NCBI GenBank assembly: GCA_032718475.1
Contig: JAUCBJ010005720.1
Span: 24,107-88,106, forward strand
Length of the DNA stretch: 64,000 nucleotides
Direction of reading: 5' to 3'
From: Nemertoderma westbladi
Lineage: Eukaryota > Animalia > Xenacoelomorpha
Part shown: positions 5,385 to 50,641 of the stretch, piece after piece
Numbering within the stretch: position 1 is the stretch's first letter
Layout of the letters: each line of letters opens with the position of its first letter
The notes under the pieces: model-generated
The model's database searches: none
Seen by the model: only the letters and a program-made list of their open reading frames with translations
What the model was told of the DNA's origin: nothing
Program-made: the position numbers and the translations under genes

Positions 5385-8300
5385 GACTGGGGAATTAGCC
5401 AACAATGTATGGAGTGGGACTGGGGAATGAGCCAACACTGTATGGAGTGGGACTGGGGAATGAGCCAAAACTGTATGGAGTGGGACTAGGGAATGAGTTA
5501 ACATTGTATGGAGTGGGACTGGAGAATGAGTTAACATTGTATGGAGTGGGACTAGAGAATAAGTTAACATTGTATGGGGTGGGACTGTAGAATGAGTTAA
5601 CATTGTATGGAGTGGGACTATAGAATGAGTTAACACTATATGGGGTGGGACTAGAGAATGAGTTAACATTGTATGGAGTGGGACTGGATAATGAGCCAAC
5701 ATTGTATGGAGTGGGACTGGAGAATGAGTTAATATTATATGGGGTGGGACTAGAGAATGAGTTAACATTGTATGGAGTGGGACTAGAGAATAAGTTAACA
5801 TTGTATGGGGTGGGACTGTAGAATGAGTTAATATTATATGGGGTGGGACTAGAGAATGAGTTAACATTGTATGGAGTGGGACTAGAGAATGAGTTAACAT
5901 TGTATGGAGTGGGACTGGAGAATGAGTTAACATTGTATGGGGTGGGACTAGAGAATGAGCCAACACTGTATGGAGTGGGACTAGAGAATGAGTTAACATT
6001 GTATGGAGTGGGACTAGAGAATGAGTTAACATTGTATGGAGTGGGACTGGATAATGAGCCAACATTGTATGGAGTGGGACTGGAGAATGAGTTAATATTA
6101 TATGGGGTGGGACTAGAGAATGAGTTAACATTGTATGGAGTGGGACTAGAGAATGAGTTAACATTGTATGGGGTGGGACTGTAGAATGAGTTAATATTAT
6201 ATGGGGTGGGACTAGAGAATGAGTTAACATTGTATGGAGTGGGACTAGAGAATGAGTTAACATTGTATGGAGTGGGACTGGAGAATGAGTTAACATTGTA
6301 TGGGGTGGGACTGTAGAATGAGTTAATATTATATGGGGTGGGACTAGAGAATGAGTTAACATTGTCTGGAGTGGGACTATAGAATGAGTTAACATTGTAT
6401 GGGGTGGGACTGTAGAATGAGTTAATATTATATGGGGTGGGACTATAGAATGAGTTAACATTGTATGGAGTGGGACTAGAAATGAGTTAACATTGTATGG
6501 AGTGGGACTGTAGAATGAGTTAATATTATATGGGGTGGGACTAGAGAATGAGTTAACATTGTATGGAGTGGGACTAGAGAATGAGTTAACATTGTATGGA
6601 GTGGGACTGGAGAATGAGTTAACATTGTATGGGGTGGGACTGTAGAATGAGTTAATATTATATGGGGTGGGACTAGAGAATGAGCCCACATTGTATGGGT
6701 GGGACTGTGGAATGAGCCAACACTGTATGGAGTGGGACTGGAGAATGAGTTAACATTGTATGGGGTGGGACTGTAGAATGAGTTAATATTATATGGGGTG
6801 GGACTAGAGAATGAGTTAACATTGTATGGAGTGGGACTAGAGAATGAGTTAACATTGTATGGAGTGGGACTGGATAATGAGCCAACATTGTATGGAGTGA
6901 GATGGAGTGGGACTGTAGAATGAGTTAACATTGTATGGAGTGGGACTAGGGAATGAGTTAACATTGTATGGAGTGGGACTAGAGAATGAGTTAACATTGT
7001 ATGGAGTGGGACTGGATAATGAGCCAGCATTGTATGGAGTGGGATGGAGTGGGACTGGAGAATGAGTTAATATTATATGGGGTGGGACTAGAGAATGAGT
7101 TAACATTGTATGGAGTGGGACTAGAGAATGAGTTAACATTGTATGGGGTGGGACTGTAGAATGAGTTAATATTATATGGGGTGGGACTAGAGAATGAGTT
7201 AACATTGTATGGAGTGGGACTATAGAATGAGTTAACATTGTATGGGGTGGGACTGTAGAATGAGTTAATATTATATGGGGTGGGACTATAGAATGAGTTA
7301 ACATTGTATGGAGTGGGACTAGAGAATGAGTTAACATTGTATGGAGTGGGACTAGGGAATGAGTTAACATTGTATGGGGTGGGACTGTAGAATGAGTTAA
7401 TATTATATGGGGTGGGACTAGAGAATGAGTTAACATTGTATGGAGTGGTCCTAGAGAATGAGTTAACATTGTATGGAGTGGGACTGGAGAATGAGTTAAC
7501 ATTGTATGGGGTGGGACTAGAGAATGAGCCAACACTGTATGGAGTGGGACTAGAGAATGAGTTAACATTGTATGGAGTGGGACTAGAGAATGAGTTAACA
7601 TTGTATGGGGTGGGACTGTAGAATGAGTTAATATTATATGGGGTGGGACTAGAGAATGAGTTAACATTGTATGGAGTGGTCCTAGAGAATGAGTTAACAT
7701 TGTATGGAGTGGGACTGGAGAATGAGTTAACATTGTATGGGGTGGGACTAGAGAATGAGCCAACACTGTATGGAGTGGGACTAGAGAATGAGTTAACATT
7801 GTATGGAGTGGGACTAGAGAATGAGTTAACATTGTATGGAGTGGGACTGGATAATGAGCCAACATTGTATGGAGTGGGACTGGAGAATGAGTTAATATTA
7901 TATGGGGTGGGACTAGAGAATGAGTTAACATTGTATGGAGTGGGACTAGAGAATGAGTTAACATTGTATGGAGTGGGACTGGAGAATGAGTTAACATTGT
8001 ATGGAGTGGGACTAGAGAATGAGTTAACATTGTATGGGGTGGGACTGTAGAATGAGTTAATATTATATGGGGTGGGACTAGAGAATGAGTTAACATTGTA
8101 TGGAGTGGGACTAGAGAATGAGTTAACATTGTATGGAGTGGGACTGGAGAATGAGTTAACATTGTATGGGGTGGGACTGTAGAATGAGTTAATATTATAG
8201 GGGGTGGGACTATAGAATGAGTTAACATTGTATGGAGTGGGACTAGAAATGAGTTAACATTGTATGGGGTGGGACTGTAGAATGAGTTAATATTATATGG

Positions 8301-9935
8301 GGTGGGACTAGAGAATGAGTTAACATTGTATGGAGTGGGACTAGAGAATGAGTTAACATTGTATGGAGTGGGACTGGAGAATGAGTTAACATTGTATGGG
8401 GTGGGACTGTAGAATGAGTTAATATTATATGGGGTGGGACTAGAGAATGAGCCCACATTGTATGGGTGGGACTGTGGAATGAGCCAACACTGTATGGAGT
8501 GGGACTGGAGAATGAGTTAACATTGTATGGGGTGGGACTGTAGAATGAGTTAATATTATATGGGGTGGGACTAGAGAATGAGTTAACATTGTATGGAGTG
8601 GGACTAGAGAATGAGTTAACATTGTATGGAGTGGGACTGGATAATGAGCCAACATTGTATGGAGTGGGATGGAGTGGGACTGTAGAATGAGTTAACATTG
8701 TATGGAGTGGGACTAGGGAATGAGTTAACATTGTATGGAGTGGGACTAGAGAATGAGTTAACATTGTATGGAGTGGGACTGGATAATGAGCCAGCATTGT
8801 ATGGAGTGGGATGGAGTGGGACTGGAGAATGAGTTAATATTATATGGGGTGGGACTAGAGAATGAGTTAACATTGTATGGAGTGGGACTAGAGAATGAGT
8901 TAACATTGTATGGGGTGGGACTGTAGAATGAGTTAATATTATATGGGGTGGGACTAGAGAATGAGTTAACATTGTATGGAGTGGGACTATAGAATGAGTT
9001 AACATTGTATGGGGTGGGACTGTAGAATGAGTTAATATTATATGGGGTGGGACTATAGAATGAGTTAACATTGTATGGAGTGGGACTAGAGAATGAGTTA
9101 ACATTGTATGGAGTGGGACTAGGGAATGAGTTAACATTGTATGGGGTGGGACTGTAGAATGAGTTAATATTATATGGGGTGGGACTAGAGAATGAGTTAA
9201 CATTGTATGGAGTGGTCCTAGAGAATGAGTTAACATTGTATGGAGTGGGACTGGAGAATGAGTTAACATTGTATGGGGTGGGACTAGAGAATGAGCCAAC
9301 ACTGTATGGAGTGGGACTAGAGAATGAGTTAACATTGTATGGAGTGGGACTAGAGAATGAGTTAACATTGTATGGGGTGGGACTGTAGAATGAGTTAATA
9401 TTATATGGGGTGGGACTAGAGAATGAGTTAACATTGTATGGAGTGGTCCTAGAGAATGAGTTAACATTGTATGGAGTGGGACTGGAGAATGAGTTAACAT
9501 TGTATGGGGTGGGACTAGAGAATGAGGCAACACTGTATGGAGTGGGACTAGAGAATGAGTTAACATTGTATGGAGTGGGACTAGAGAATGAGTTAACATT
9601 GTATGGAGTGGGACTGGATAATGAGCCAACATTGTATGGAGTGGGACTGGAGAATGAGTTAATATTATATGGGGTGGGACTAGAGAATGAGTTAACATTG
9701 TATGGAGTGGGACTAGAGAATGAGTTAACATTGTATGGAGTGGGACTGGAGAATGAGTTAACATTGCATGGAGTGGGACTAGAGAATGAGTTAACATTGT
9801 ATGGGCTGGGACTGTGGAATGAGCCAACACTGTATGGGGTGGGAATACTGGATAATGAGCCAACACTGTATGGGTGGGACTGTGGAATGAGCCAACACTG
9901 TATGGAGTGGGACTGGATAATGAGCCAACACTGTA
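5385..9935. repeat. 33-bp minisatellite (GAGAATGAGTTAACATTGTATGGAGTGGGACTA) with 1767-bp higher-order repeat
   Basis: About 138 units. Diagnostic variants recur at a 1767-bp offset (ORF track 6476 vs 8243, 6673 vs 8440). Confidence 0.95.
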
Positions 9936-10901
9936 TCGATCATGGGGTGTAATTCCTCACTGCCGTTGGGTGAGGGGGTGAACATAATGGGGGATGTGTT
10001 CATTACTAGTAGTGATGGTAAGCTCACTCTAGTTTGTGTCCCCTTGTTTGGGATTTGGAACATTTCGAGGTGCCGACAAAGGAGAAATTCCGCTCGGTGG
10101 AAGACACGAAATCACAGAAGATGTTGGAACGAGATACTACCTTTGAAAATGGTCATTATTATGTCCCAATGTTATGGAGAGATAAACAAAAACCTCTTAC
10201 ACGTAACCTCACCCTAGCAATTAAAAGATTGCGATGGATAAAGACGAGATTGCGTAAAAATGCCAACGAATCGGAACAATTCCAAACAAAGATGGAAGAG
10301 TTCATCACCAAAGGAATAGGACAATATCTGACGGAGGAAGAAATATTGAATCCCGACCCCCAACAATATTATATTTCAACCCACTATGTTCTAGAAACTA
10401 ATAAGAAAAATAAAGTGCAAGTGGTAATGGACGATGCAGTAATTTGGAAAGGCCATAGCCTAAACTCTGAACTAATGGCTGGACTTATTCAACACGATAG
10501 TGACTGAGTCTAACCTGTTGCTTTCTGCTTAGACCTAGAAGCGATGTTCCATCAAGTCAAGGTATACCCAGAAGATGCCGTATCACAAACGATCTTATGG
10601 TACGATGGACAAGAGAAACCGAAATCCATAACAAATTCAAATGAATGCGAATATGTTCAGCGCCACTGATGCCCCACCTACAACGGCTTTCCCACTCAAA
10701 ATGACAGGAAGCAAAAACGCCCACAGATATCCTGCCAATGTAAATGGGACGATCCAAAAACCTTTTCTACGTGGACGATGGACTCACAGGCGAAACTACC
10801 GTGAAGAAAGCGGTGCTGCTAGCGTATAATCTAATAGACTGTCTAAAAAGAGGAGGATTTAATGCAATCAAATTCCTATCCAACTCTCGACAATTCCTTA
10901 A

Positions 10902-12402
10902 CCCTATTAATCCCGGGGGGGGGGGGGGGGGTCAATATGACCCCCCCGTGGTTTTATTATTATAATTCTGAAACAAACGCAGTTGGGAATCTGAAATTTT
11001 ATGATTTTTCCTAAAAATCTATTGTCTTCCTAGTAGTGAAAACCGTTTGCAAAAATATTGGGTAGTTTTCGAGTTATAGCACCATTTTTTAACCCTACTT
11101 TTGGCACTTTTTTTTGAGACGTTTTTTGAAAATTACTTTTCATTAAATATGAATTGTAACATCTCTATGTTTGAATTACACCGGTTTTTTGGTGTTAGCA
11201 ATTGGATGGAATTCATATAAATTGATTTAGAAATTTCAAACTTGTTTTTTTCGGTGGGTGCCAAATTTTGGTGCCAGAACTAAATTTTGAAATATGTCAA
11301 TTTTGAAAATTGATTGTTTGAAACTTGTTTTTTACGCAATTGGGGTTTTTTGGGGTTCTCGTTTCGATGAAATATATACGAGTTGCACCAAGCGTATAAA
11401 ACTTGTATTTTTCGGTGCTGTGTGCAATTTTTGGTGCTAGCACGAAATTTTGAAAATCCATTCAATAGATAAAATTGCTTGTGACATTTTATTTCTTGCG
11501 TTTTAGAGGTTTATGGCTGTTCTGAATTCAATGGAATATATAATTATCGAACTAGACATCTCAAACTTGTATTTTTCGGAAGTGGGTGCAAAATGTGGTG
11601 CTAGCACCAAATTTTGAAAATCATCAAATATATCAATTGATTGTGTCACCTTGTTTCTTGCGTTATACGGGTTTGTGAGGGTTCTGAATTCAATGGAATC
11701 AGTAAAAATTTCATAAGAGTTTTCAGACTTGTATTTTTCGCAAAAATTTTGGAAAATAAGCAAATTGATCAGTAGATAGTATCATCTTGATTCTTGTGTT
11801 ATACGGGTTTATACTGGACATCGCAAACTTGTAATTTTTGGTGATGGGTACGAAATTTGGTGCTAGCACCAAAATTTGCCAAATTACACCGAAAAATACA
11901 AGTATCAATGATCTGGCATATTAGAAATGTATTCCATTAGAATCATCAGCGCCCTAGAAAACCTATAAATGTGAATTTATAGCATCGTATAAGTGAATGA
12001 AAAATTTTGTGTTCTACCTGAAAAGTGCTGGTTACTTGTTTTTTTCATTTTTTTCCTACGCAGAGACGACTAAACAGCCCTTTATAGTAATCATATCATT
12101 TTTAAATATTTTCCAATGTATTTTGCGCCCCAGAAAACCTGTATTGAAAAACAATTAGCCGAAAATGTAACTTTCAAATTTTGTGAAAATTGTGCACTAC
12201 TTGTAATTTTGGTGCTGCAATATAACCACCCCAGTACATTTTTTCGAAATTTTTTTTTTTCGGTCGGATCCAGACTACTGATACCTACGTACAAACAAAA
12301 AATCAGACGTTTTCGTAAAAATTTGTAGATTTTAGAGGGGTGGGGTCAATATGACCCCCTCCCGGTATTTGTACAACATTTTATAGCCCGGTACTAATAG
12401 GG
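10902..12402. mobile_element. Non-autonomous piggyBac-like DNA transposon (MITE), 1.5 kb
   Basis: TTAA TSD at 10898-10901 and 12403-12406. TIRs CCCTATTAATCCCGGG / CCCGGTACTAATAGGG (14/16 match). Subterminal palindrome GGGGTCAATATGACCCC at both ends. The host pol frame continues across it, and there is no transposase ORF. Confidence 0.9.
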
Positions 12403-12497
12403 TTAACAACACACCAACAGACAAAGTTGCGAAAGGAGTCCTAGATCTGGATTTGGGTGAAATGCTGTTGACAAGAGCATTGGGAGTAAAATGGTGG

Positions 12498-13683
12498 TGT
12501 AAAGGCTTTTCCGGAATTGGCCGGTTATTTTCCCCGTAAAGTACTCTGTAGTTGGTTTAACAGGCATAAAAGGCCGTGTCCCACTGTACTGGTGTTTTAG
12601 AGGACATAAAAGTAATTTCTTCTGTACGTGTACTTTAGCGGACATAATCCACAATTCTATGACGCAAAAGCCGAAATACTCTTGAAACAGTGTAGTTAGT
12701 ATGACGACAGCTAATAGCTGAGCTGTACACGTGGAGCCTCTGCACGGAGCCTTGGTTCTTTGTTCTGCTCAGCTCAAATGACGACATCTATCAGCTGTGT
12801 CCACGTCAGTTCGACCAATCAGAGATTTTCCCTTTGTGTAAAAGCTGTACAGCAGAATCCCATGATTCAGTACTGACGTTTCCCCCACGCCTAAGAACAC
12901 CGGCCGTGGAATGTTTTCTAACATTAGAGCGTCTTTAATTATAAGAACACATAACTGTTACCGGCACGGTACAGCGGTACGAGACACTAAGAACACATAA
13001 CGGTACGGTACGTATTGCACATTATTTACTGCTATTTGCTGTTTGTTATTAAATGTATCATTCGTTTGCTTATTGTTATTTGGAGAATAACTATAAACGA
13101 TCAGAAACCCCGATCTTCTTGATACACTAAGGTTAGAGAGACCGGCTACATATAGCAATTGCGACTTATATTATCGTGGTTTGTAGTGAATTGAATGCTA
13201 TTTTATAGGCCCTACAAATGTCGGTTGCTATTCTCTTTATATATGATTAAAATCAGTGACTATCGGCAATTCAGTGTGCAGCGGTGTGCAATAGTAACAA
13301 AGCATCTCCTAAAGAATGCGCCTTATGTGTAACTTATAATCCATTCCGTTGTGTTTAGTGTAAGCCATAGCTCTGTTTATATAGATAGAGCGCCACGTCC
13401 TAAAGGAACTGCTAATATTTCCCGAAAGTGAATAATATTTGTCAGAGATTATATATTAACGATCAATCGAATAGTACGGTAGGCCTGCACCGCAATCAAA
13501 TTAAAGCATCCGAATCCAGTCTCCCGGGTATATCCAGCGGGTGAATGGTCGCGCATAGACTGGCTTCGGCTAATGTTGGATTTATTTGTCTCAAATACTT
13601 GTCATAGGCTAAAGTCAATTTATAACCTAGAAGACATATAGATTTGGCGGGTTAAACTGCCAAAGGTCTTAAAAGCGCGAACA
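12498..13683 (+). repeat. 5' LTR of BEL element 1 (1186 bp)
   Basis: TGTAAAGG...GCGAACA, matching 23454-24662. Contains CCAATCAG (about 12815), a TATA-like GTAAAAG (about 12838) and an initiator-like TCAGT (about 12866). Confidence 0.93.
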
Positions 13684-13965
13684 GTAACAGTTATAGCTTC
13701 TTGATTGTGGCGTAAGCAATCAAGTTGATAGTACCGGTCGACCGGTAACCAGTAGGCCTGACTACCTGATCATCCGGACCGGTACTTACAGCAGTATAGG
13801 TACATCAGTATTATTTCGATTGTGATATATTGTATATTTTAGGCTCTTAGGGGATTAGGGATTGATCACCCCTTATTCCTTTGTATGGTTTACTTATTTC
13901 TGTCAGTTTTATTTACTAGTAGGCTAATATTGAGCAGAAGACGTGTAAACCTGCTCAGATTGTAC

Positions 13966-14545
13966 AGATAATTTGTAGGCTGGACTGTTGTCTAACTGTT
14001 GTTAAGTCTGAACGGATTGCAGTGTGTGTAGAGCATCTGTCCGATAAAGTGCTAGTTAGGAACGTAGGGGCTTCAAGTGCTGTGAGGTAAACCCCCTTTG
14101 AAAGAATAAGTCGTACTACTAGGTTAGAACGCATACTAACTAATCATTTCGGAGTCTGCATATACTGTAGTTTATTTAGGCTTGATAGTAGTCTGCCATC
14201 GTTTGGTCTGTACTTTGTTTGTGTAGTCTGTACGGGTAGCGTATAATTTTTATTTAGATAATTTGTAGGCTGGATAGTTGTCTGGCTGTTGTTGAGTCTG
14301 AGGAGATTTCGGTGTGTGTAGAGTGTATGTCCGATAAAGTGCCAGTTGGGAACGTAGGGGCTTCCAGTGCTGTGAGGTAAACCCCCTCTGAAAGAATAAG
14401 TCGTACTACTAGGTTAGAACGCATACTAACTAACCATTTTGGAGTCTGCATATACCGTAGTTTGTTTGGGCTTGATAGTAGTCTGTCAGTATTTGGTCTG
14501 CATTTTGTTTGAGTAGTCTGTACGCGTAGCGTAATATTTATTATT
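13966..14545 (+). repeat. 290-bp direct tandem duplication in the BEL1 leader
   Basis: AGATAATTTGTAGGCTGGA starts at 13966 and 14256, and the two copies are similar along their length. Confidence 0.85.
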
Positions 14546-15812
14546 CAGAGTTTATGCGATTATTCGCAACATTCATTCCCCAAGTTTATTCCTACAGTAA
14601 TTGTGCTTGTTATATATACCGTTACAGTTAAACTAACCCCGGTACTACATCAGGGCTGCTTGGCGTAGGTAAAGACTGGTGATTTTGTGCACCGGTCACT
14701 CCAGCAGATACCGTGGTTCTTTTGGCTGTTCAAGTATTTTAACTACTGATTATTTGTTATATAAGTACTTGTACCTAATTTAGGGTTTGGTGTACAGTGC
14801 TTTCCGAAGGTGATTAGTGTGTGGGCAGTATATTTGTGTTGTAAAGTGGTTAATAGGCACGTTGGTTCTGGTAGACCGCGGTAATTAACTTCTGGGTAGG
14901 AACACTCTGTGATACATAACGTAGTACTTATAGCGATACGGCTATAAGTCGTCAGATGGTGGTATTTTCCTATCTGGACAACGCAGTATATTTACTACTA
15001 CTTATTATTTTCAAATACCGTAGTACCCTGTCCGTTGTAATAACCAGATATTCTAACCCTTTGTTAGGCTGGTTTGTAGACTTCTTGTAAAATTACCCTA
15101 AAAATTCGTACTTGTAAATTTTTGTGTTTATTTAGAGATTGTAATCTCAACCCGAATTGTACGTAATTTGTAGTATTAAGTAACTTAGGTTAAATTAGAA
15201 TTATTTGTTTTAGTGTCCAACAAGTAGCACTCCACTGAGAGCGCACAGCTTCTGTGTAGTGACTCCCCCCAGAAATAATAACATTTATTTCAAATATTGA
15301 CAAAACCCATTTTAACGGGTATATATATATTATAAATCAACTCAAACGATTTATAAATAGTAGGCCTGCCATACATCAATTAGGTCTAAATGTCAGTTGG
15401 ACTACTGCTTAAATAGCGGTAATAAAGTAAGTTAAAGTAACCAAGTAACCCCTGAAATTTCAGAAATTCAATTATTCTAAAATAATTGACATACCGGTAT
15501 TTACAATCGGCTTATTATATTTATTTCTATAAATTTAGGCTGAAATTATACCGGTATTCTGTAATTAATATTAATTCTAGTCTGTAATTATACTTATATA
15601 TATACATTATAAGTGTAAGCTGTATACCGGTATTCACGATAGGCCTATTATATATTTATAAATTTAGGCTGAAATTATACCGGTATTCTGTAATTAATTC
15701 TAGTTAATAATTATACTTATATATACTATAGGTGTAAACTGCATACCGGTATTCACGATAGGCCTATTATATATTTATATATACTTGTGCTGAAAGTACA
15801 TACCGGTATTCT

Positions 15813-17054
15813 GTGACAAATCTAGTCTGTGACAATACTTATATATATATTTCTCAATGGCCCGACAGCTCCAGTAGTGAGGATACTGTAGAGCTGACAC
15901 CCGAGCGCGGAGCAAAGATGACGGATGCGGTTTATTCGGATCCCCATCTCATCCTTCCTGCGGCCGTACTCACTAGGTTATTGATTGCGGTGGAAGAACA
16001 CCAGATCGATTGGGCGAGAAGTAAGCGATCGACTAAAGATAGTTATGCGGGATATACAAGGGAAGAACTGAAGTCTATTGTCGAGTCGCAATGGAACTTC
16101 CCCGGACCCGGACTCCCGTTTGATTTATCAGAAGCTGCCTGGGAAGATATACACAGGATGGGAGTAACCAAGGAAACCGTCGATCCAGCTGTGTGGAAGA
16201 GGTCCGCAGCCGGATACGTACAGGGATTCGTAAGCTCTATGGAGCGAGTAGAAAAACAACTGTTTCAACAACCCCAAGGACCTCAAGAGCAGGGACAACT
16301 GCTTTATCAAGTTAGAGAAAGAATTCTACGAATCAGGCTAATCTTATCAGCCTTTGAGGAGGCTTCTAAAAGAAGACAAGACACGTCGTTGCAAGTTGCC
16401 GTAAAGACTTGGTTTCAACGGGTGAGCCTCAGGGTGCAGGGAACGACTCAGTGGAAAGCCCAACTGGATGAGCGCTCAACCCATGGAGAATCAACAGACG
16501 CTACTTTTTCCCAAGTGGAAAGTGAAGCGACAGCAGAGAAGCCGCATAAGAGGGATGCCATTGACATCTATCTGTCGGACTATCAACGTTTTGTAGGAGA
16601 TGAAGAGTTGAGGAGAAGACTAGAGGGGCTTAGCCCTAATAGTGAAGGAGCCCAGCGTGTGTTGGACGCAATCGATGTGGATAGGTTAGCTGCGAACCAA
16701 GCTAAATTCAATGAAAGCATCCTCATCGCTAAGGTTCAAGAAGAACAAGTAAAGAAAAAACGTATAGAAGACAGAAAGATAGCAGCAGTGGCAGCAGCAG
16801 TGGCAGCGGCAGAAGCGGAAAGAAAGGCTGTAGAAGTGGAAAGAAAAGCAGCCGAAGTGGAAAGAAAAGCGGCAGCGGCAGTGGCAGAAGCAGAACGAAA
16901 GGCGTCTGAAGAGACTGTCCAACTAGAGTTGGAAAATCTTCAAGAGAAGCAAGACAACTTTAATAAACAGTTAAAAGCTAGTAATATGCAGATGATGAAT
17001 CGATCTACTCCCAAGAGGCAAGGTTATACATCAAGGCGATACCACAGATCATGA
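15813..17054 (+). pseudogene. BEL1 gag N-terminal region (coiled coil, AAEAERK repeats), separated from the rest by a stop/frameshift
   Basis: 413-aa open frame inside the element, directly upstream of the gag-PR ORF. First ATG is at 15918. Confidence 0.65.
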
Positions 17055-17094
17055 AGGCGGAGGAAATCAATCTCGCCTAAGCAGACGTAAAAGA

Positions 17095-20000
17095 ATGTCC
17101 CACCGTGAGAAATTGCCTGATTTGCCCCCAGCTGTTCGAAGGCAACTAAATAACACAAATTTAGGTAGTACAGAACCCACAGACCAAATAATTAAAATAG
17201 AAAGACTCCCTACTATAGTAGATGAGCCTGAAATAATTAGGCCTGTTCTTGAAATCACCCCTTCGGTGATAGAAACGCCTGTACTCCCAGAACCTACCTT
17301 TAAATTCCCTTTATACAGCACCAAATTATCTGTGCCTAGAGGAACAGCCCCTGAAACAGTGTCGGTCCTGGACTCCGAGCGAAATATAAAGGATATATCG
17401 CCCGTAGTCCCTCGTCTGCCCGCTACGACGTTGGCGGATCCTGCTTCGGCGGTTGATTGGGTAGACGAGAGACGGCGGGGGATGGATATTCTCCTCGGAA
17501 AGATGGAGGAGAATCGAGTGCGCTCCTCCCAACAGGTCCGAGAGTTAGAAGGGACTGTTCAACAGTTAAAGGGAACCGTAAAGGAAAGTAGGTTAGAGTT
17601 GCAAGAAGTGCAGCAAAGTATCGCGCTAGAACGCGATAAATTAGTAAATTTACAAAAGGGTATACCACCACCCCCGGTAACAATGTGTCAACCTGTTAGG
17701 TCTGAAGTATCTCATGCGCAAGGTGTGGAGCCTACACGCATATATACTGCTAGCGAAGTAGAAACTCCTATAGTGAACCCTATTAAGGGTAATTATAGAC
17801 ATGTTGATAATGATATTCCCTATAGACCTGATCATAATCCGAGAAATTTATATACCGATACCTCGATATTAAATAACTCGATGGCCCAAGAAAGTTTTAC
17901 GCGTCAAATGGCTAGAACCGAAGCCCGGCAAGAGGTAAAGGTGGGAGAGATCGTCAAGTTCAATGGAGATGAGATGAAATGGTTACCTTTTAATGAATAT
18001 TACAAAGATAACATACAGAACTCTGTACTATCTAATGGAGAGAAACTTAGATTCCTCATCGAGTGCTTGGAAGGATCTCCCAAGTTAATGGCGTTAAAGT
18101 TTATTGGACATCCAGACGGATTAAGACAAGTTTGGGATACCCTAAACATCAGGTATGGTAATAGGACTAACATAGCTAGGTATTTATATGCGAAATTAAT
18201 GGCGCCCCGAAAGTTTCTTAGCAGCGGGATTATAGAGTTTTCTGACGATATTCAGGAGATCTGTAGACAACTAGATTGGTTAGGTAAGTCTCATGAATAC
18301 CAGAATTCTATGGTTGTAGGAGCCTTAGCATCTACTTTGCCCAAGGGTGGAGTAGGTACACGCTGGGATAAGAAAGTGTTATATATGATGGAACAACAAC
18401 GACGAGACCCTACCATGGCTGATCTCATGTCATTCTTAGATGGAGAAGTGAAATTACAGCTCCTAAGGCAGTCCAGAGAGAAGACACCAGAAAACAAGGT
18501 AAGTGAGAAACCCGTTTCTAGGAGAAGGGTAATACCAGTGTGTTATACCGACGACAGCGAAAGCCAGGCTTCTCAAGAGGAAGACAGCGGGAAAGACACT
18601 GAAAGATCTTACTATGACAACAAAGCGACTAAGGACGTAAGTAAATTCAAGTCTCGAACCAATGACAGGAGAGAACAAGTAAGAAAAACTCCTCCTACGT
18701 CTCCTAAGAGAATTCAAGTAAGAAAGCCCGAAGAAAGAACGAGTGTGCACAACGTTACTCAAAGTAAGGTAAGTAACATCAAACCAAAATGTGTGCTGTG
18801 CGACGGGCCCCACCGTTTGAATATGTGTGATAAATTCCTAAAGAAATCATTAAAGGATAGACGTGAAGTCATGTGGGATAAGCGGTTGTGTTATAATTGC
18901 CTCAGACGAGGACACCAACGGCGAACCTGTTACTCCGACGCAAGGTGTGCAAAGTGCAGCGCAAAACATCATATCTTGTTGCACACGGAATTCGAACGAA
19001 ACAGCCCGAGTCAGGTAAGTGAGTCCGAACTACATGTCCAATTCAGTGATGTGAACGACACTGACCAATATTCTGAGATGGAAGGATCCTATTCGGACGA
19101 ATTCTCCGACGAAAACGAATCCTGTTACCTGACAAATACCGCAGTGTATCGAGCACTTACGTATGAAAAGGACACCGACAGCGACCTCACCCTAACTACT
19201 TCTGATCGACAACCATATTGGAAAGCGCCACCTTCCAATGTAGGAATCCGAGAATTTCCTGTAGTACAGGTAAGGGTCCCTGGACCTAAAAGGAGTTATA
19301 TAGTGAACGCCCTCCTTGACTCCGGTAGCACAGGAACATTCATCGACAAAGAACTAGCCGAAGACATCTTTGCTGGACAACCCAAGTTCCGAACTAAGCT
19401 AAACATGTCAGGAATTATGCAGGTTTGGAAATCTATCGTAATAGCGGATTATTATGTAGGCGCGTTGTCCACCCCCCAGGATGAACTAGGAGAATACAGC
19501 ATAAGGTCAGTAAAAATGGTAGCGATAAAGAACTTCGCGACCAGCCAAGTGGAACCTTATAACTGGGATGAGGACGATTTCACCCAGCAGTTTGGAATAC
19601 CTAGATTCAACACCGATTACCCTGGAGTCCAAATACTCATCGGTCAAAATGCGCATGAAGCGCTCGAGACATTGGAGAAACGGCCTGCTCAACCGCAACC
19701 TCTGCAAGTTTATGCGGGAAGAACTAGAGTAGGTTGGTACTTTACTGGCCCTTCTCGTAGAACTCTTATGGAAAGATTACCAAAAGAACAGGTATATCAA
19801 TTAAGTGAACGGGAAGTGGAGAGCAGTGAAGTTGACGACCCAACTGAGGGAACACCATACTCCTCAGATAATGACGACATCAACTCCAATGTAGATCAAT
19901 GGAGACATTGTCCCGAGACGATCAATCTAGCCGACATCGCTTCCAGAGGAGCAACTCCTCAAGAACTTACAGATACTCCAGACCGGTTAGGTGGACCCGA

Positions 20001-20220
20001 CTTCCTAAGTAAAGAAGATGAATGGCCTCCTCATCTTACCCCGGTGAAGATTAGACAGGCCAAGGGAGCGGAGAAAGTAACACAACCACTCAATCGCCCA
20101 GCTGGTCGTTTCTGTTTACCGGAAAGAGACCGAAAACTGTCCGGAAACTATGGAAGGCAAGATACTCTTCCCACGACCACCTCCCTAATCCAACAAATAT
20201 CTAGGGACTCCATAACGTAA
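17095..20220 (+). CDS. BEL1 gag-protease polyprotein fused in frame to an RNase H C-terminal remnant
   Basis: DUF1759-like FNGDEMKWLPF/EKLRFLIECLEG. Knuckles CVLCDGPHRLNMC, CYNCLRRGHQRRTC, CAKCSAKHHILLH. Protease ALLDSGST. It then jumps to QWRHCPETINLADIASRG...GPDFL. Confidence 0.88.
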   Translation: MSHREKLPDLPPAVRRQLNNTNLGSTEPTDQIIKIERLPTIVDEPEIIRPVLEITPSVIETPVLPEPTFKFPLYSTKLSVPRGTAPETVSVLDSERNIKDISPVVPRLPATTLADPASAVDWVDERRRGMDILLGKMEENRVRSSQQVRELEGTVQQLKGTVKESRLELQEVQQSIALERDKLVNLQKGIPPPPVTMCQPVRSEVSHAQGVEPTRIYTASEVETPIVNPIKGNYRHVDNDIPYRPDHNPRNLYTDTSILNNSMAQESFTRQMARTEARQEVKVGEIVKFNGDEMKWLPFNEYYKDNIQNSVLSNGEKLRFLIECLEGSPKLMALKFIGHPDGLRQVWDTLNIRYGNRTNIARYLYAKLMAPRKFLSSGIIEFSDDIQEICRQLDWLGKSHEYQNSMVVGALASTLPKGGVGTRWDKKVLYMMEQQRRDPTMADLMSFLDGEVKLQLLRQSREKTPENKVSEKPVSRRRVIPVCYTDDSESQASQEEDSGKDTERSYYDNKATKDVSKFKSRTNDRREQVRKTPPTSPKRIQVRKPEERTSVHNVTQSKVSNIKPKCVLCDGPHRLNMCDKFLKKSLKDRREVMWDKRLCYNCLRRGHQRRTCYSDARCAKCSAKHHILLHTEFERNSPSQVSESELHVQFSDVNDTDQYSEMEGSYSDEFSDENESCYLTNTAVYRALTYEKDTDSDLTLTTSDRQPYWKAPPSNVGIREFPVVQVRVPGPKRSYIVNALLDSGSTGTFIDKELAEDIFAGQPKFRTKLNMSGIMQVWKSIVIADYYVGALSTPQDELGEYSIRSVKMVAIKNFATSQVEPYNWDEDDFTQQFGIPRFNTDYPGVQILIGQNAHEALETLEKRPAQPQPLQVYAGRTRVGWYFTGPSRRTLMERLPKEQVYQLSEREVESSEVDDPTEGTPYSSDNDDINSNVDQWRHCPETINLADIASRGATPQELTDTPDRLGGPDFLSKEDEWPPHLTPVKIRQAKGAEKVTQPLNRPAGRFCLPERDRKLSGNYGRQDTLPTTTSLIQQISRDSIT

Positions 20221-23200
20221 CAACATACGGAGTGGGTGTGTGACTATATTATTTTATATTTATTTTATTATTTTATATTATGTATGTATTATTATGTAAT
20301 TTTATTATAATCGTTTTATTTAATTTTATTCAGTAGAATGTTATTTTAGCGATTATTTAGTAGATTAGTGCAATATATTCGTGTTTATTACGTAATTACT
20401 TATATTATATATTTAGTGCGACGGCGAGAAATAATTCTTTTTCTCTTTCCTTACTGCCCGTATTACATTACGAATACGTAACTATAGTAAAATGAAATGT
20501 CTGTACTTATTAAAGTACAATAAAGCCACTACTATATTCAAGTATTATTGGTAGGCAGAGTATTAGGAATGCAAAGTTCAGATCCTCGTGTCTCGGCTAA
20601 ACCAAGCTCTGTGTAGACCTTGGAAACGACTTGCCTCTTCTCACTGACATTGCTTCGTGCGATATTGCTCTCATACCATATATAATAATACATATAGTAG
20701 CGTGATATCCCTATAACAGTAGCGTAAAACGCAAATAAATCTGTTAAACCTTTGACCATCTGTAACTCTAGTCGATTAAGATATCGCGGCACCCACCGAT
20801 ATACTTGAAAGACAAATTTTAGAATCAGTGGTTAACGTCCCCAGACAAGTTCTGGAATAAACCGGTGCCCATCCTAAATATTAATTATTAATATTTACAA
20901 AATCTGTCAAATTTTAGATCCTTTAACATTCTAGTCGATTAAGATATCGTAGCACTTACCGATACTCTTAAAAGGACAAATCCCTAGAATCAAGGATCCC
21001 AGTCCCCAGACTTGTTCTGGAATAAAATTGTGTCTATTTAATATTAAATAATAAAATTACGGGAATAAATTTAATTTCATCTTTTAATGAATTTGATAAA
21101 TTGTTATTTTATACAATTTATAATATTCCCAAAATTCCATTAATTAATAGATCATGGGAGCGGAGATTCACCTCTTAAGTGTATTAATGTGCGAGAATCT
21201 CCAATATAGAGTCAATAGCCGATAAAATTCATAAAATCATATATAAAGATGATATTGACCATTAAAGACTTACTATTAAATAGCATCCCAGATCTGTATG
21301 CATGGGAATTACCCTAATTCTACCGCTAGCTTTCCATAATGTCACCATAGTAACAGCCACGCTAGAATTAGAAGTGAGTTAAAAGAACAATAAAAAGCTT
21401 GCCCATTGAATAGCATACGGAATAAATAGCACACCGCTAGTATCCAAGGATACATAATAACAACGTGACATTCTGGAAGGCACTTGACTAACGGACAAAT
21501 GACCCGAATGTGTGATAGAATGTGTACCATTTGTGACAGTTACGTGGAATTTGTGCGTTTGTAGTTGAATGTTACTACTAAGGTGTGTTTACAGTAGCGA
21601 GTCGCAATTGTGAAAGTAGCCCTAACTCTCCAGTAAGAACCTGAAGTATATCTAAGCCTTTGGGACGGACGGTGGAGTGACTTGTGCTGGTTGTTGTAGT
21701 CGTTGTGCAGCTACGACGTTGGCGATAGGCACATCGACGAAAGTACACCAGCGCTGAGGATCTTGCACTGTCCGGGGGAAGAGAGGGGCAGGCAGCAACG
21801 CCCGCTAGCCTAAATATAAACTCATTATAATATTAATAAACTCATATAGCAGATATGATTGAGTTGATAGATGATGATCTTGGTATCAGGGAGCGATATA
21901 CTCTACCTTTACAAGCGTTTGTTGATAGCTTGATACGCGGCGACGCTGGTCCAACTACTACGGAGGACGATGGTCATTATATCTAACCGCCAATCTCCCG
22001 GGAGCAACTTGCGCGTGGGTTAGACTGTAGAAAATTTACCGCTCGCTATACGCATCGTAATGGTATGTATATGGACTTCTTAACTACTGGTCATCCTATC
22101 GACCTACACGATACGAACGATATAGACACCAAAAGGGAAATGGTTTTATTTAAATATCCTACCCAGCGGAAGCGGAACGATAAACTGAAACTCGAACACG
22201 AAAATTCTATTCGAAACCGACTCGAAAGTGCAGATGTTGAGGAGCCGGATAAACACAGCGACTTCACCAAATACCTGGAATTCTTGAGAGAAACCTATCT
22301 AGATATTACCAGTCAACAGAATCTAGAAACTCGATATCCTCAAGGTATAACTCATGACCGCATGGTAGAACTCAAACGGCTCTATTCCACAGATGTATCT
22401 TACCGCCGATCGACCGCTACCTGTTGTACTGGATAGCTTCGAACAGATGGAGGAAATTTGTAAAACTGGAGAACGATCACCCGCGTTTCCCCTACAAGAC
22501 GTGCGTCTTTGGTATTATTGCAATGAATGCCCAAGACCCAACCAACAAACGAAAAGACATAAACATCCGCGGAGACGTTGCTTTAAACACGGTTTTACTC
22601 GCTATATTTACGGGAGTTTCGAGCGAAACTTGTTCGATGTATCACCTACGCTCGTTCGACTCAGATGATCCTTAAATAAACCAATGATCAGAGTTTCGGA
22701 ATACTCGATCAGACCTCCTCATTCCCTAGTGAGACCTCAGACTCTTGATCCTATTAGTATGACGGATCCTCCCGAGCTGTACTCACTGCTCAAAGATCTA
22801 GTGTTACCTGAACAATTAGTCGGTGGCACCCGGTTGTGGGCTTCCTAGATATTAGCCCATCCTACCTAGCCGGATTGGGACGCGGACATTTAATATCGCC
22901 GTTTAACCCTTACTATCGTCCCGGCTTAACACGATATAACCTGTCACCAAAGTGGCGGAGAGCGTTGTACCAAATGAGTTAGACGCTATTCTACAAAGAT
23001 CAGAAAAGGAACTTACGCTTGTTCAGATAAACGTAAATTGCACTAGCAAGTCCAAGCGGTAAACAAAGTAACTATATCTCAGTTCGATCGGGAAATCCAG
23101 AATCTCTAAGAAGTTATCGAACTTGGACGATCCTATTCTCTGCGAGAGTTTTTGGATGAACGTATCCAGCTACGAGCGGAGGAAAATCAGCTCGAGGAGA

Positions 23201-23453
23201 AGCATATCGAAACGGCGGATACCTCGACCATAATCCTACACCTTCTGATGCAATCATATTGCCCCCTTCACCCAGGAGTTATGGCCCTCCTAGTAAAGTG
23301 GCTCCCCCCAAAGAGAAAAGGACTCTTGCTAGCCTCAAAAAACTGCGTAAACGCCGTCTGCGTAAGAAAGGCTAACTGTTTAGAGTATTTTTATATTTTA
23401 GAAACTGTGATTTGTTATATTTTATAGACTTAAATCCCATTTTCTGGGAGCGG

Positions 23454-24662
23454 TGTAAAGGCTTTTGCGGAATTGGCTGGTTATTTTCCCCGTAAAGTAC
23501 TCTGTAGTTGGTTTAACAGGCATAAAAGGCCGTGTCCTACTGTACTGGTGTTTTAGAGGACATAAAAGTAATTTCTTCTGTACGTGTACTTTAGCGGACA
23601 TAATCCACAATTCTATGATGCAAAAGCCGAAATACTCTTGAAACAGTGTAGTTACTATGACGATAGCTAATAGCTGAGCTGTACACGTGGAGCCTCTGCA
23701 CGGAGCCTTGGTTCTTTGTCCTGCTCAGCTTAAATGACGACATCTATCAGCTGTGTCCACGTCAGTTCGACCAATCAGAGATTTTCCCTTTGTGTAAAAG
23801 CTGTACAGCAGAATCCCATGATTCAGTACTGACGTTTCCCCCACGCCTAAGAACACCGGCCGTGGAATGTTTTCTAACATTAGAGCGTCTTTAATTATAA
23901 GAACACATAACTGTTACCGGCACGGTACAGCGGTACGAGACACTAAGAACACATAACGGTACGGTACGTATTGCACATTATTTACTGCTATTTGCTGTTT
24001 GTTATTAAATGTATCATTCGTTTGCATATTGTTATTTGGAGAATAACTATAAACGATCAGAAACCCCGATCTTCTTGATACACTAAGGTTAGAGAGACCG
24101 GCTACATATAGCAATTGCGACTTATATTATCGTGGTTTGTAGTGAATTGAATGCTATTTTATAGGCCCTACAAATGTCGGTTGCTATTCTCTTTATATAT
24201 GATTAAAATCAGTGACTATCGGCAATTCAGTGTGCAGCGGTGTGCAATAGTCTGTATGTGCTTGTCCGCGTAACAAAGCATCTCCTAAAGAATGCGCCTT
24301 ATGTGTAACTTATAATCCATTCCGTTGTGTTTAGTGTAAGCCATAGCTCTGTTTATATAGATAGAGCGCCACGTCCTAAAGGAACTGCTAATATTTCCCG
24401 AAAGTGAATAATATTTGTCAGAGATTATATATTAACGATCAATCGAATAGTACGGTAGGCCTGCACCGCAATCAAATTAAAGCATCCGAATCCAGTCTCC
24501 CGGGTATATCCAGCGGCGGGTGAATGGTCGCGCATAGACTGGCTTCGGCTAATGTTGGATTTATTTGTCTCAAATACTTGTCATAGGCTAAAGTCAATTT
24601 ATAACCTAGAAGACATATAGATTTGGCGGGTTAAACTGCCAAAGGTCTTAAAAGCGCGAACA
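23454..24662 (+). repeat. 3' LTR of BEL element 1 (1209 bp)
   Basis: Copy of the 5' LTR with extra 20-bp and 3-bp segments, preceded by a weak PPT (CTGGGAGCGG). Confidence 0.93.
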
Positions 24663-25505
24663 GGTGGCCTGAAGAAGACACGATCACCATCGCAGTTAAA
24701 CCGCAGATGGTGATAAACCAGGAACAAGCAACGAAGAGGATTTCCATCATTATGTCCGTCTATGATCCACCAGGACTCGTTGTACCGATCGCATTACAAG
24801 GAAAGATCATGTTCCAGAAATGTTGGACAGACAAACTTGATTGGGATAAACAACTACCACCAGCATTGCTTACCGACTGGATAAAGTGTACTTCCCAATT
24901 AGAAATCTTTACAGAATTGCAGATACCCCATTTGTACTTCCCGATGATTCCAGATACTCCAATATACGAGTTACATCAATTCTGCAATGCCAGCGAAACC
25001 GTTCCACACCTAAGTTGTGTGGCGTGGGTGGGGAGGGTGAGCCTATTCAAACTAGGCTCGTATTTTCTAGAACAAGACCAGCACCCATATCTGCACAGAC
25101 GGTACCCAGGATGGAGTTATCAGCGGCAGTACTCGCAGTTAAAGCGCACGCCAAAGTGATCAGTGCGCTGGAACTCACAATCGAACGAAATTATTTCTAT
25201 TCGGATTCAGAGGTGGTACTATGCCAACTATCAAATGAGTCAAGATGGTTCGTAACCATTGTAGCGAACCGGATAGAGGAAGTAAGAAGGTTTACCGAGT
25301 TAAGACAATGGAGATACGTTCCCACAGAAATGAATCCAACAGACTGTGCAAGCCGCGGATTATTCCCGGAAGAGTTTATAACAAGGTTCCACAACTTTTG
25401 GTTTTATGGACCAGAGTTCCTCAGACTGCCTGACAAGGAGTGGCCTTCAGAAATAGTTAACGGCCCTCATAGGGGGAAGAAACCAGAGGAGGTGGACGAC
25501 TATAA

Positions 25506-26441
25506 ACCCATGTGATAATTTTTTTTGTAGTTAAAGGGTGTAAGACTCTAGTGGTTACCTTAAAGTTAATATATACATCAAACCCCTGTTAGTCAGTATG
25601 TCGGTACATTCAATTATCACATATAAATATAGAGCAGAACTCCGGCATCACTGCATGTTGTTAAATCTTATATAATTTTTGTGCTGTGTGTTTGCTCTAG
25701 CAAACTACCAGTTTTCCATTGGTAACATGTTTACTTACCGTAGGCCTATAGGGTTCCAATGTTCTGAGGTCTGAAGTCTGTTTGGGCTGAGTGGTAACTG
25801 AGTTGATGGTGCGATTAATTTAGGTCAACGGTGCAATATAGTTAGGCTTGGCTAATTCCCTGTCCAGCTGATGAGGTGTCGAGGATTAGCGCGTACTGGT
25901 CCTAGACGCCAAAACGCAACCATATTTTTAACAAATTAATTATTTTTGTCTAGTCCTACCTCTTTCACGGCGACAAAAATGTCATATATTTTCTTATAGA
26001 ATATAGGCTTAGCTTTTGTGCAGTTTAATACCGGTATCATTTAGTGTATGGCGGTTAGGTTTTAGGGTTAGGGTTGCAATACATACTTGTATGTGGAGCA
26101 TGGTATAATATATTTTGTTTGTGTTTTTTGTTTGTCTTGTTTTGTGTTCCTTGATGGCCTTAGGGTCTGGAAGGTATTTTGGGCTTAATGTCCTGATACT
26201 ATACTTTTGTTTGTGTTTTTTGTTTGTTTTGTTTTGTGTTCCTTGATGGCCTTAGGGTCTGGAAGGTATTTTGGGCTCAATGTCCTGATACTATACTTTT
26301 GTTTGTGTTTTTTGTTTGTTTTGTTTTGTGTTCCTTGATGGCCTTAGTGTCTGGAAGGTATTTTGGGCTTAATGTCCTGATTCTATATTTTTTTGTAGTT
26401 AAAGGGTGTAAGACTCTAGTGGTTACCTTAAAGTTAATAAA
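25506..26441 (+). mobile_element. 0.9-kb non-coding insertion with about 52-bp terminal direct repeats, possibly a non-autonomous Penelope-like element
   Basis: TSD-like GACTATAA at 25498-25505 and 26442-26449. Direct repeats at 25520-25571 and 26388-26439, the latter running into AATAAA. Internal 92-bp x3 repeat and a hammerhead-like core at 25868-25915. Confidence 0.55.
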
Positions 26442-28071
26442 GACTATAACCCCGACAAAGAGAAGGAAGTCATGGTGGCATATGCGACAATGGCAACAGA
26501 TGATGAACATCCCATAGATAAAATCCTGGCTGGAAATGGTTCCTTCAATATCAACATGAATAGACTGGCAAACCTAATGATCCTACGGGATAAAATACTT
26601 TACAATGCCCGACGCAAAAAGAACAAGTTTATAAGCTTCCAACCAATCAAAGCAGACTACAATGAATTGGCATTCACCACCATAATAAAACATCTACAAG
26701 TTAAACACTTTGCGTCGACCATACATGATCTAAAAAGGAACATCCAACTGGTCAAGAGTAATCCGTTGCGGAAGTTATGCCTGTTTCTTGACCCCCTTGG
26801 GGTCATAAGGTGTAACACAAGACTCCTATATACAGAACTGGATTATAATGAGAAGTTTTCCATACTGTTACCAAACGAGTCGCCGATTACAACAGCTATA
26901 GTCAGAGGCGCACACCAGGATATCGCCCACCAGGGGTTTGACTACACCATAAACAAGGTGCGAAGACGTTTCTGGATATTCAAATTAAGATCCAAAGTAA
27001 AACATGTGATACGCACCTGTGTGAAATGCCAAAGGAAATGGGGTAAAGCGGACTCACAACTAATGGCCCCGCTAGACCATGGAACAGGGCGCAGATGTAC
27101 GACTCACCGTTCACCTATTGTGGAGTAGATCTGTTTGGACCCATAACCTTAATGCGCGGCAGGGTAGAAGTCAAACGATATGGAGTGATATTCACGTGTT
27201 TCCTATGTTGCGCTGTGGCGCTGGATTTAGCGGCAGATTATTCAGCCGTCGCGGTGATTCTAGTACTGAGGAGATTTATCTGCCGATATGGAAATGTTTC
27301 GATATTATATTCAGATCAGGGAACTCACCCCCCTAAATAAATTCTGACTGACTATATAATTTCGTGCTATTGGCTTATTATAAAAAACTTATTATTGTAT
27401 ATATTCTAATTATATTGGTGTATTGGGGAGTCCCATATATTTGGAATCAGTGTATATCAGCGCAAAGAGAACTTGATCAGTTAGAATTAAAATTGATGAT
27501 TCAACCTAACTTGTTCTTTTTCCTTTTCGACTACATTATCCATCACTCCCTGATCCAATATCTGGTGACTAGTATTGAGAGATGCAGAAACACTCCCAAA
27601 CTTACATCGGCGTTAGTGAATAATGGCAACAAAATTCCAAATATAAGAGGTGAATTTTGCTGATACAAAATTCAGATAAACCTGCGGAATTCCAACCATA
27701 GCACTTTCCCGATGGAGCTTCACCCTGCGATGAATTCAGAAACCTAACACTACTTCCATGCTACACTGACACGTAAACGCAGATGAAACTGGTGAAGGAA
27801 AAGGTGTGTTCAAAACTATAAAACCCTATTTATCTAACAGACTCTAAATTATCTACATTATCTAAATATCAACGAGGAATGGACATAACGATTACACTGA
27901 TGGAGTTGACTCAACGTGAAGACAGGATTTGGAACATCAAAGTTGAGGTGCTGGGAACGAACTAGGGAATATTCAGGATCATTGTCCATGTGGATCAAAT
28001 CCCAATACGAAACGTACGAGGAGCTGTTCTATGCATTCGCTTACGTCGCGATACGTGCTGCTACCGAATAA

Positions 28072-44290: not shown

Positions 44291-44513
44291 GTATTGGTTT
44301 TTCTGGGATTCTGATTGCATTCTATCTCAATAATTACTACATTGTTATTCTGTCATGGACGCTTCATTATTTCGGAAATTCGTTCCAAGCGAATTTGCCA
44401 TGGGCAACCTGCGGCAACGCATGGAATACCAAAGACTGCATTGATGATGAACGTAGGAATTTGTCGTACCAGGCGGTTAATAGACCCACCGACCCTGCTG
44501 AGGAGTACTGGAG
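44291..44513 (+). CDS. SLC6 gene B exon 4 (TM3 and extracellular loop 2); GABA/taurine/creatine-subfamily-like
   Basis: ttttag|GT acceptor, (G)IGFSGILIAFYLNNYYIVILSWTLHYFGNSFQANLPWATCGNAWNTKDC...RPTDPAEEYW, donor AG|gtaagt. This frame is not in the ORF track. Confidence 0.93.
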
Positions 44514-50011: not shown

Positions 50012-50558
50012 TGTTAGCTTATTCAATCCCGCTAACACCCCATAAAGTTTAGCCAATAAGCAATATTGGGAGCCACGAGATTGGGTAATTAACCAACTCG
50101 TGCCATCCCAATAAGAATGGGAAGGAGAAGCACACAATGAGGGTCAGGGGCCAAACCCCTAACCCAGAGAGAACAGGTGGAGTGAACGGGAACACTCCAA
50201 AGGGCGCCAACAAGGGTATCAACCAATCAGAGGGGGGAAAGGCATCGATTAGGTAGAGTAACAAGGCCAACCGTGCAATATAGCCACTTGGCAGTAATCA
50301 TATCAATTCAGTTATCTCAGTGCAATACTGGTGCTAGTTTAGGTTACATAGTTTAGCTAGGGAAGGACCGGGACTTTAGTTACCGTATCCCGCCTTCCGT
50401 ATACAACAACATATTATCTCATATCTATATCTATATCTATATCTGTATACCCGAATATTATATACGACGAACAGCACAAACTCATTCACTCTTTATACAC
50501 GGCGGGGACGCGTAAACTAACAACGGATAAACCGGGATCCCTCTTGGATCCCGTCACA
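50012..50558 (+). repeat. 5' LTR of BEL element 2 (547 bp)
   Basis: TGTTAGC...GTCACA. Contains CCAATCAG (about 50223), AATATAG (about 50277), TCAGTT (about 50308) and a terminal hairpin CGGGATCC-CTCTT-GGATCCCG. Confidence 0.95.
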
Positions 50559-50641
50559 GTAACTAAAACCGAGCTGCTGCCCTAGTTAAACTGTAACAAC
50601 TGCTGCCCTAGCTAGCTGAACTCCACCGATCACCAACCGAG

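Follow-up and report, generated by a model that had tools for sequence, protein, structure and literature searches.

The window, a 64,000-nt stretch of Nemertoderma westbladi DNA, contains two BEL-type LTR retrotransposons, elements 1 and 2, in which the sequence directly after the 5′ LTR is complementary to a segment of the element's own LTR. Element 1, a BEL/Pao retrotransposon that has no RT, was inserted recently and lies within the pol of an older BEL copy. Its features are as follows.

12493..12497, + strand: left target-site duplication GGTGG, flanking element 1
12498..13683, + strand: 5′ LTR, 1186 bp, TGT...ACA, defined by alignment of the LTR pair and by the target duplication
12815..12871, + strand: candidate core promoter with CCAAT at 12815, TGTAAAAG at 12837 and an initiator-like TTCAGT at 12866 (putative function)
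12916..12964, + strand: block common to diverged LTR subfamilies of the same organism, including TATAAG at 12940, as judged from contig loose ends and depth
12951..12961, + strand: putative self-primer 3′ segment ATAACTGTTAC, with presumed cleavage after 12961 by analogy with Tf1
13048..13053, + strand: candidate poly(A) signal ATTAAA, followed by T/G-rich sequence
13643..13664, + strand: U5 hairpin, 19 nt before the LTR end, predicted by folding
13684..13694, + strand: non-tRNA primer-binding site (PBS) GTAACAGTTAT
16999..20220, + strand: ORF encoding BEL Gag (DUF1759), a Cys/His knuckle, protease and a short RNase H-region remnant
23446..23453, + strand: purine-rich tract before the 3′ LTR
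23454..24662, + strand: 3′ LTR, with the same primer segment at 23907-23917
24663..24667, + strand: right target-site duplication GGTGG, flanking element 1

The two LTRs of element 1 align over 1177 matching, 9 mismatched and 23 gapped columns. They have TGT...ACA ends, and the 5-bp target duplication GGTGG is present on both sides. Because both LTRs and the target duplication define the boundary, the LTR end at 13683 is fixed independently of the complement. The ORF has a DUF1759 match in Pfam (E 5e-12), and BEL polyproteins align to its Gag, protease and RNase H-region remnant. RT and integrase are missing. Paired TG...CA LTRs, a target duplication and a purine tract, as expected of BEL/Pao, were found in the elements of the window. 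A 430-codon open frame (15762-17054) overlaps the start of the Gag frame and is without a Pfam match; short frames are present at 21987-23424, within the 3.2-kb 3′ region, and none of them has a Pfam match.

The earlier note on this DNA had claimed that element 1 has no tRNA PBS and that the 11 nt after its 5′ LTR are complementary to that LTR. Both claims hold. There is no TGG at the independently fixed LTR end, and none was found within 0-5 nt of the 5′ LTR end in element 1 or in element 2. GTAACAGTTAT occurs once in the window, and its exact reverse complement is located at 12951 in the 5′ LTR and at 23907 in the 3′ LTR. The complement begins exactly at +1 past the LTR, with no extension into the LTR. 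A match of at least 11 nt anchored at +1 was obtained in 9 of 20,000 dinucleotide-shuffled element 1 LTRs (64 of 20,000 when offsets 0-5 were permitted), and a pseudo-PBS control gave at least 11 nt at 10 of 9,691 internal positions of element 1. No tRNA genes were found in the 64,000-nt window. An Rfam search of 12400-14000 with E up to 1 gave no match; therefore, no embedded tRNA-like primer was detected there. From the sequence, we consider it likely that the PBS of element 1 pairs with its own LTR segment and that this family primes minus-strand synthesis with its own RNA. An intron-split primer was also sought in element 1 with any GT/GC donor and AG acceptor; the best match was 7 nt, no better than unspliced, and no loose contig ends pointed to an intron-bearing version inside the primer.

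The arrangement of CCAAT, a TATA-like box and TCAGT described in the earlier note is present, and transcription of element 1 would start at about 12869. ATTAAA sits 87 nt after the primer end and would place the primer in R if the start lies upstream. A second TATA-like box, TATAAG, is located directly upstream of the complement. It could be the real TATA box, with a start near 12970, downstream of the primer, and this promoter role could also account for the conserved block. Against 12895-13015 we aligned DNA contigs drawn from three studies (four runs). Diverged copies of element 1 fit only from approximately 12914-12920 to 12960-12964 and are dissimilar to the window on both sides. The summed contig depth, which does not represent copy number, is highest at 12935-12959 and drops after 12964; several of the diverged subfamily copies already differ at 12961. 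A conserved island ending at the primer 3′ end fits selection on the putative primer. We favor the upstream start, as the succession of CCAATCAGA, TATA-like box, TTCAGT and primer end is the same in both elements, with the primer end 92 nt (element 1) and 73 nt (element 2) past the initiator-like A. An exact search for the conserved block in a collection of genome contigs gave 0 matches. TAAGAACAC is present three times around the primer (12892, 12942 and 12988), and the third copy runs on as ATAAC, which repeats part of the 5′ half of the primer.

Folding bore out the hairpin that had been reported near the U5 end. Within a three-duplex structure this hairpin alone is stable in element 1, and the primer helix varies with the window ends. 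Its probability ranged from 0.0 to 1.0 across 24 folding windows and was 0.0 in all four windows ending at 13850. The helix would span about 720 nt and is unstable intramolecularly in folding. Because it is not robust to the choice of window, folding was not counted as support for element 1. We make no claim for an extended duplex (12930-12961 with 13684-13713, -22.9 kcal/mol), because a local hairpin in the leader is a competing fold and a scan across the LTR did not rank this window first. The leader hairpin (13700-13724) adjoins the PBS. Most contigs have a different base at 13708, which would lengthen its stem; thus, the hairpin competes with extension of the primer duplex.

Element 2 represents a second BEL family and is inserted in the ~42-bp satellite array at 44484-61978. 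The features that bear on its priming are the following.

50012..50558, + strand: 5′ LTR (3′ LTR at 59639-60181, target duplication GTAAG)
50343..50383, + strand: putative primer arm, consisting of TTTAGTTAC at 50375-50383 and an upstream arm pairing with the leader at 50569-50597
50533..50553, + strand: U5 hairpin with an 8-bp perfect stem, 5 nt before the LTR end
50559..50567, + strand: non-tRNA PBS GTAACTAAA

Pfam identified Peptidase_A17, Integrase_H2C2 and DUF5641 in element 2, which retains the RNase H region and integrase and is without protease and the front of RT. Elements 1 and 2 are deleted, non-autonomous derivatives. Element 2 has a 9-nt self-complement at the PBS plus a longer duplex, in letters that differ from those of element 1; the TTTAGTTAC 9-mer was found in 105 of 50,000 Markov LTRs. 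The two elements agree in PBS bases 1-5, and both primers end in GTTAC followed by CG. Positions 6-9 of the PBS differ, and each element matches its own LTR there. The CCAATCAGA...TTCAGT order upstream of the primer is also shared, and no TATA-like box adjoins the primer of element 2. Of 10 folds begun at 50310 or 50340, 8 gave the primer helix of element 2 a probability of 0.84; of 5 begun at the primer itself, 4 gave it 0.0-0.02. In the fold, the upstream arm 50343-50371 pairs with 50569-50597, extending 40 nt upstream of the primer end, and a further duplex lies directly past the cut (50384-50394 with 50501-50510). The predicted fold resembles the three-duplex structure of Tf1. An intron-split primer, sought with the same donors and acceptor, gave at best 9 nt in element 2, no better than unspliced.

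The statement in the earlier note that BEL/Pao elements are generally described as tRNA-primed agrees with the ICTV profile of Belpaoviridae, in which the PBS is 18 nt long and pairs with tRNA-Arg or tRNA-Gly, a host tRNA being the primer (PMC8742986). In the available portions of the sources, self-priming is described for Tf1/sushi and predicted for Tcn1 and TAR (PMC6317226), and the self-priming mechanism and three-duplex structure are given for Tf1 and Tj1 (PMC4600332, PMC10085805). As far as the accessible text goes, BEL self-priming is not mentioned in PMC3601003, PMC6934838, PMC5443660 and PMC8220671. The term tRNA is absent from the main text of PMC3118150, PMC554778 and PMC6238403, "PBS" from the two of these checked for that term, and "primer" from PMC3118150 and PMC6238403, again within the text available. 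tRNA-independent self-priming in a BEL lineage was, to the earlier note, not known to be described, and our literature search likewise turned up neither self-priming nor splice-built primers for BEL/Pao; an earlier mention is possible in Repbase, GyDB, most subscription journals and supplements, which lay outside the search. A self-encoded primer has reportedly been described for Cer7 of C. elegans, a report that our literature search did not locate and on which nothing here rests.

As in Tf1 and Tf2 of Schizosaccharomyces pombe, Tj1 of S. japonicus and Tf1/sushi elements generally, the PBS of elements 1 and 2 comes directly after the 5′ LTR and has its complement within the LTR of the same element, with the match anchored at the LTR end (PMC4600332 and PMC10085805, in the parts available). 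Flanking duplexes and a U5 stem-loop of the Tf1 type are predicted clearly in element 2, whereas element 1 has the U5 hairpin only. While Tf1/sushi elements are Ty3/gypsy chromoviruses, the elements described here are Belpaoviridae (DUF1759, Peptidase_A17 and DUF5641), with BEL-type domains and no chromodomain in Pfam. The Tf1 primer is the RNA 5′ end, whereas the BEL primer appears to be internal to R and, in most relatives, to be completed at an intron junction. Primer cleavage has been shown for Tf1; for the BEL elements it is presumed by analogy. A predicted self-primer has been defined as a complement of at least 10 bp starting 0-5 bp after the 5′ LTR (PMC6317226, available text). The plant elements Tcn1 (Ty3/gypsy) and TAR/Houba/Osr-1 (Ty1/copia) were assigned on this basis, and element 1 has 11 bp at offset 0. 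Those elements belong to other superfamilies and hosts, and no intron-split primer is mentioned for them in that text (PMC6317226). The elements share with the ICTV description TG...CA LTRs of up to 1.2 kb, a purine tract, Gag and protease, as well as the RNase H region and integrase in element 2. BEL-type Gag/Pol domains are thus present; a complete pol (RT, RNase H and integrase) is found in neither element. They differ in that elements 1 and 2 and about 20 relatives are without the 18-nt tRNA-Arg/Gly PBS (PMC8742986).

A metagenome scan for relatives retained 77 BEL loci with about 28-39% identity to the element 2 pol, 47 of which had upstream DNA long enough to scan. In many of them, ...ACA is followed by GT or AT in place of TGG. 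We picked 20 non-TGG sites by hand, one per family, with L006/L076 and L032/L034 as close pairs. The same score partly guided this choice, and the LTR end is fixed independently only for L031, L034, L062 and, by a contig end, L063. An own-LTR complement of 10-17 nt is present in 18 of these 20 sites; L063 has 9 nt and L032 has 7 nt. Thus, self-complementarity in other families, which the earlier note had asked to be checked, extends to element 2 and to 18 picked relatives. Pairings of at least 10 nt between loci numbered 8 of 616, some of them between close pairs, and in seven TGG-type sites the match was 4-6 nt at +1, reaching no more than 9 nt when offsets 0-5 were allowed. The complement is contiguous in 3 of the 18 relatives (L034, L048 and L062) and requires removal of a GT-AG intron in the LTR in the remaining 15. 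The predicted introns measure 75-612 nt in the 14 relatives with both ends in one stretch; in L018, donor and acceptor are on opposite contig ends. The donor is GTAAGT or GTGAGT in 12 of the 15 split primers, which is stricter than the search demanded. The last 5, 7 or 8 bases of a split primer follow a pyrimidine-rich YAG, and the remainder ends the upstream exon; the downstream exon contributes 7 nt in 10 cases, 5 nt in 4 and 8 nt in 1.

Since the 20 sites were picked partly by score and LTR ends were fixed in few of them, an unbiased scan was run over every CA site in 38 family representatives and 15 shuffles. Matches of at least 11 nt were found in 14 of 38 families, compared with 1-5 in the shuffles. 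At sites starting with GT, a requirement modeled on elements 1 and 2, matches of at least 10 nt were found in 13 of 38 families compared with 0-2. When the GT condition was dropped, the contrast at 10 nt or more was weak (16 of 38 versus 5-13). The scan matches in L026 and in L062, the latter one of the 13 GT-start families, are probably due to chance. In the 3′ LTR of L034, the two flanks of the 536-nt L054 intron are joined directly, with 40/40 identity upstream of the donor and 40/40 downstream of the acceptor; therefore, an LTR without exactly the predicted intron exists. The L054 acceptor at 672 is one of three equal-scoring sites. In L034, the LTR matches the PBS over 11 contiguous nt. 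No two of the 20 PBS 9-mers from the 18 relatives and elements 1 and 2 are alike; they begin with G in 17 cases and with A in 3, and their second base is always T. In 10 of 13 relatives, a poly(A)-type hexamer follows the primer end by 11-83 nt and still precedes the LTR end. The suggestion that the primer may be internal to R gains support from the promoter-like motifs, from the upstream exons of the relatives and from the predicted element 2 duplex 40 nt upstream.

Several single loci are also of note. L015 (1633-1647), L028 (2425-2437) and L062 (1862-1874) have an apparent 3-nt TCA spacer between the LTR end and the self-complementary PBS, fixed by a second LTR in L062 only. The LTRs of L031 (4013-4422 and 10808-11177) are 71% identical, and donor, acceptor and the 12-nt junction complement are all kept. 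In the sister families L050 (354-360) and L057 (553-559), PBS position 5 differs and the LTR exon is changed to match (G-C versus A-T). A search for relatives in viral contigs gave 15 pattern matches, 0 of which were confirmed. Against the metagenome loci, the Gag of element 1 had weak, unranked matches only.

Phylogenetic analysis of the RNase H-integrase region was performed with 79 rows (L021 and L074 were omitted because they are too short), 59 rows and 32 rows. On the 32-row tree, the self-pairing metagenome loci cluster (3 changes versus a shuffled mean of 10.4; 0 of 500 shuffles). Five TGG loci form a separate group; L046 is located beside the self-pairing group and L052 inside it. L052 has a TGG-type site without self-complement (56-80), and a return to tRNA priming or a misplacement is possible. 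Element 2 is a long branch that, together with the host copy, joins towards the TGG side on the 59-row tree and is unplaced on the 32-row tree. Holding element 2 with the self-pairing rows was not rejected (AU p 0.248), which does not show a clade. Element 1 has no tree position because its RT is missing.

We propose, as the reading that best suits these sequences, Tf1-like self-priming in BEL/Pao with a putative primer that is internal and often assembled by splicing. The transcript would fold back so that its capped 5′ part pairs with the PBS. By analogy with Tf1, a cut after ...GUUAC would leave a 3′-OH at the LTR edge in element 1, and RT would extend the new 3′ end into U5, as in Tf1. For element 1, RT/RNase H supplied in trans would make the cut. 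Transcribed from ~12869, its segment would give a capped primer of ~90 nt, compared with 11 nt in Tf1. In the relatives, the predicted GT-AG introns in the LTR would be spliced, completing the primer. If only the cap-proximal copy were spliced, only the 5′ LTR RNA would pair fully with the PBS, and the unspliced 3′ R copy would keep the intron for the next DNA copy and could not compete for the PBS. If the 3′ copy were spliced now and then, intron-less LTRs such as that of L034, and perhaps those of elements 1 and 2, would result. More broadly, we lean towards the view that a large and widespread branch of BEL/Pao is tRNA-free and that the spliceosome builds the RT primer by removing the 5′ LTR intron, a replication checkpoint that would tell the 5′ R from the 3′ R. 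The window elements would then be intron-less members of this branch, or of independent origin, with a capped primer of 75-95 nt.

The primer could also be encoded by the element and act in trans: a short capped RNA (spliced in the relatives) from the 5′ LTR or from solo LTRs would anneal to the PBS of unspliced genomic RNA and be trimmed to the paired end. This would be a simple account of intron persistence in the DNA, and the position of the poly(A)-type hexamers, shortly past the primer end in the relatives and in element 1, and the instability of the long intramolecular helix of element 1 would suit it. However, element 2 is predicted to fold stably in cis with duplexes on both sides of the cut, and Tf1 acts in cis according to the available parts of PMC4600332 and PMC10085805. 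We regard a trans-acting primer as unlikely. Alternatively, the pairing may be real and selected as a structural switch in packaging, translation or poly(A) control, with priming by something else; the element 2 duplexes do reach beyond the PBS, and self-priming itself is deduced from sequence. Such a switch seems quite improbable to us. Against a switch, the first complementary base is at +1, immediately past the LTR (or past the 3-nt spacer in L015, L028 and L062), exactly the position that an RT primer needs. Moreover, no TGG site is present in its stead, and the TGG-type elements are without pairing.

Even if the relatives self-prime, the complement in element 1 might lie in U3, upstream of a TATAAG-driven start, as a chance match, a relic or a 3′-end pairing. 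TATAAG does lie within the conserved block, the element 1 fold is not robust, and many elements were scanned initially, so that rare matches are expected to appear. This is nevertheless very unlikely in our judgment: the conserved block stops at the primer end and not ~30 nt past the TATA-like box, and elements 1 and 2 share GTAAC/GTTAC-CG as well as the upstream CCAATCAGA...TTCAGT order, and element 2 has no TATA-like box adjoining its primer. A cellular primer with the terminal sequence ...GUUAC, either a small RNA or a tRNA fragment, would explain the GTAAC common to both PBSs, and half-tRNA primers exist in Ty1/copia (PMC6317226, in the text available). We consider it extremely improbable, as PBS positions 6-9 differ between elements 1 and 2 in step with their own LTRs, and the differences among all 20 PBS 9-mers across the families are beyond what a single shared cellular primer can account for.

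Self-priming has so far been placed, in the sources available in part, in Ty3/gypsy and, by prediction, in Ty1/copia. If the proposed self-priming is true, BEL/Pao would be the third LTR superfamily, and this would bear on whether hairpin formation and self-priming are ancestral or have arisen repeatedly. A splice-built primer, if true, would link host RNA processing directly with the start of reverse transcription. Self-primed elements of this kind would evade control via tRNA supply or tRNA fragments, and annotation tools demanding a tRNA PBS would under-call them. The predictions of the model are exact (junction, cut site and paired bases) and can be checked by RNA sequencing alone.

The surroundings of the elements contain further repeats. 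The older, broken BEL pol that hosts element 1 occupies 10022-10911, 12407-12497 and 24663-27337, with a further insert at about 25520-26390, and on the trees it is the long-branch neighbor of element 2. LTRs and a PBS of this older copy were not found in the window. Its pol is interrupted at 10898-12406 by a ~1.5-kb insert with TTAA on both sides, short terminal inverted repeats starting with CCC and internal 162-bp repeats, which by eye resembles a non-autonomous piggyBac-type DNA transposon. Degenerate Gag-like frames at 28072-29384 may represent a fourth BEL copy; no LTR was identified for it, and the one frame scanned gave no Pfam match. Besides the array that contains element 2 (44484-61978, about 42 bp), satellite arrays are located at 986-2249 (55 bp), at 5401-9936 (33 bp) and from 32975 on (55 bp).
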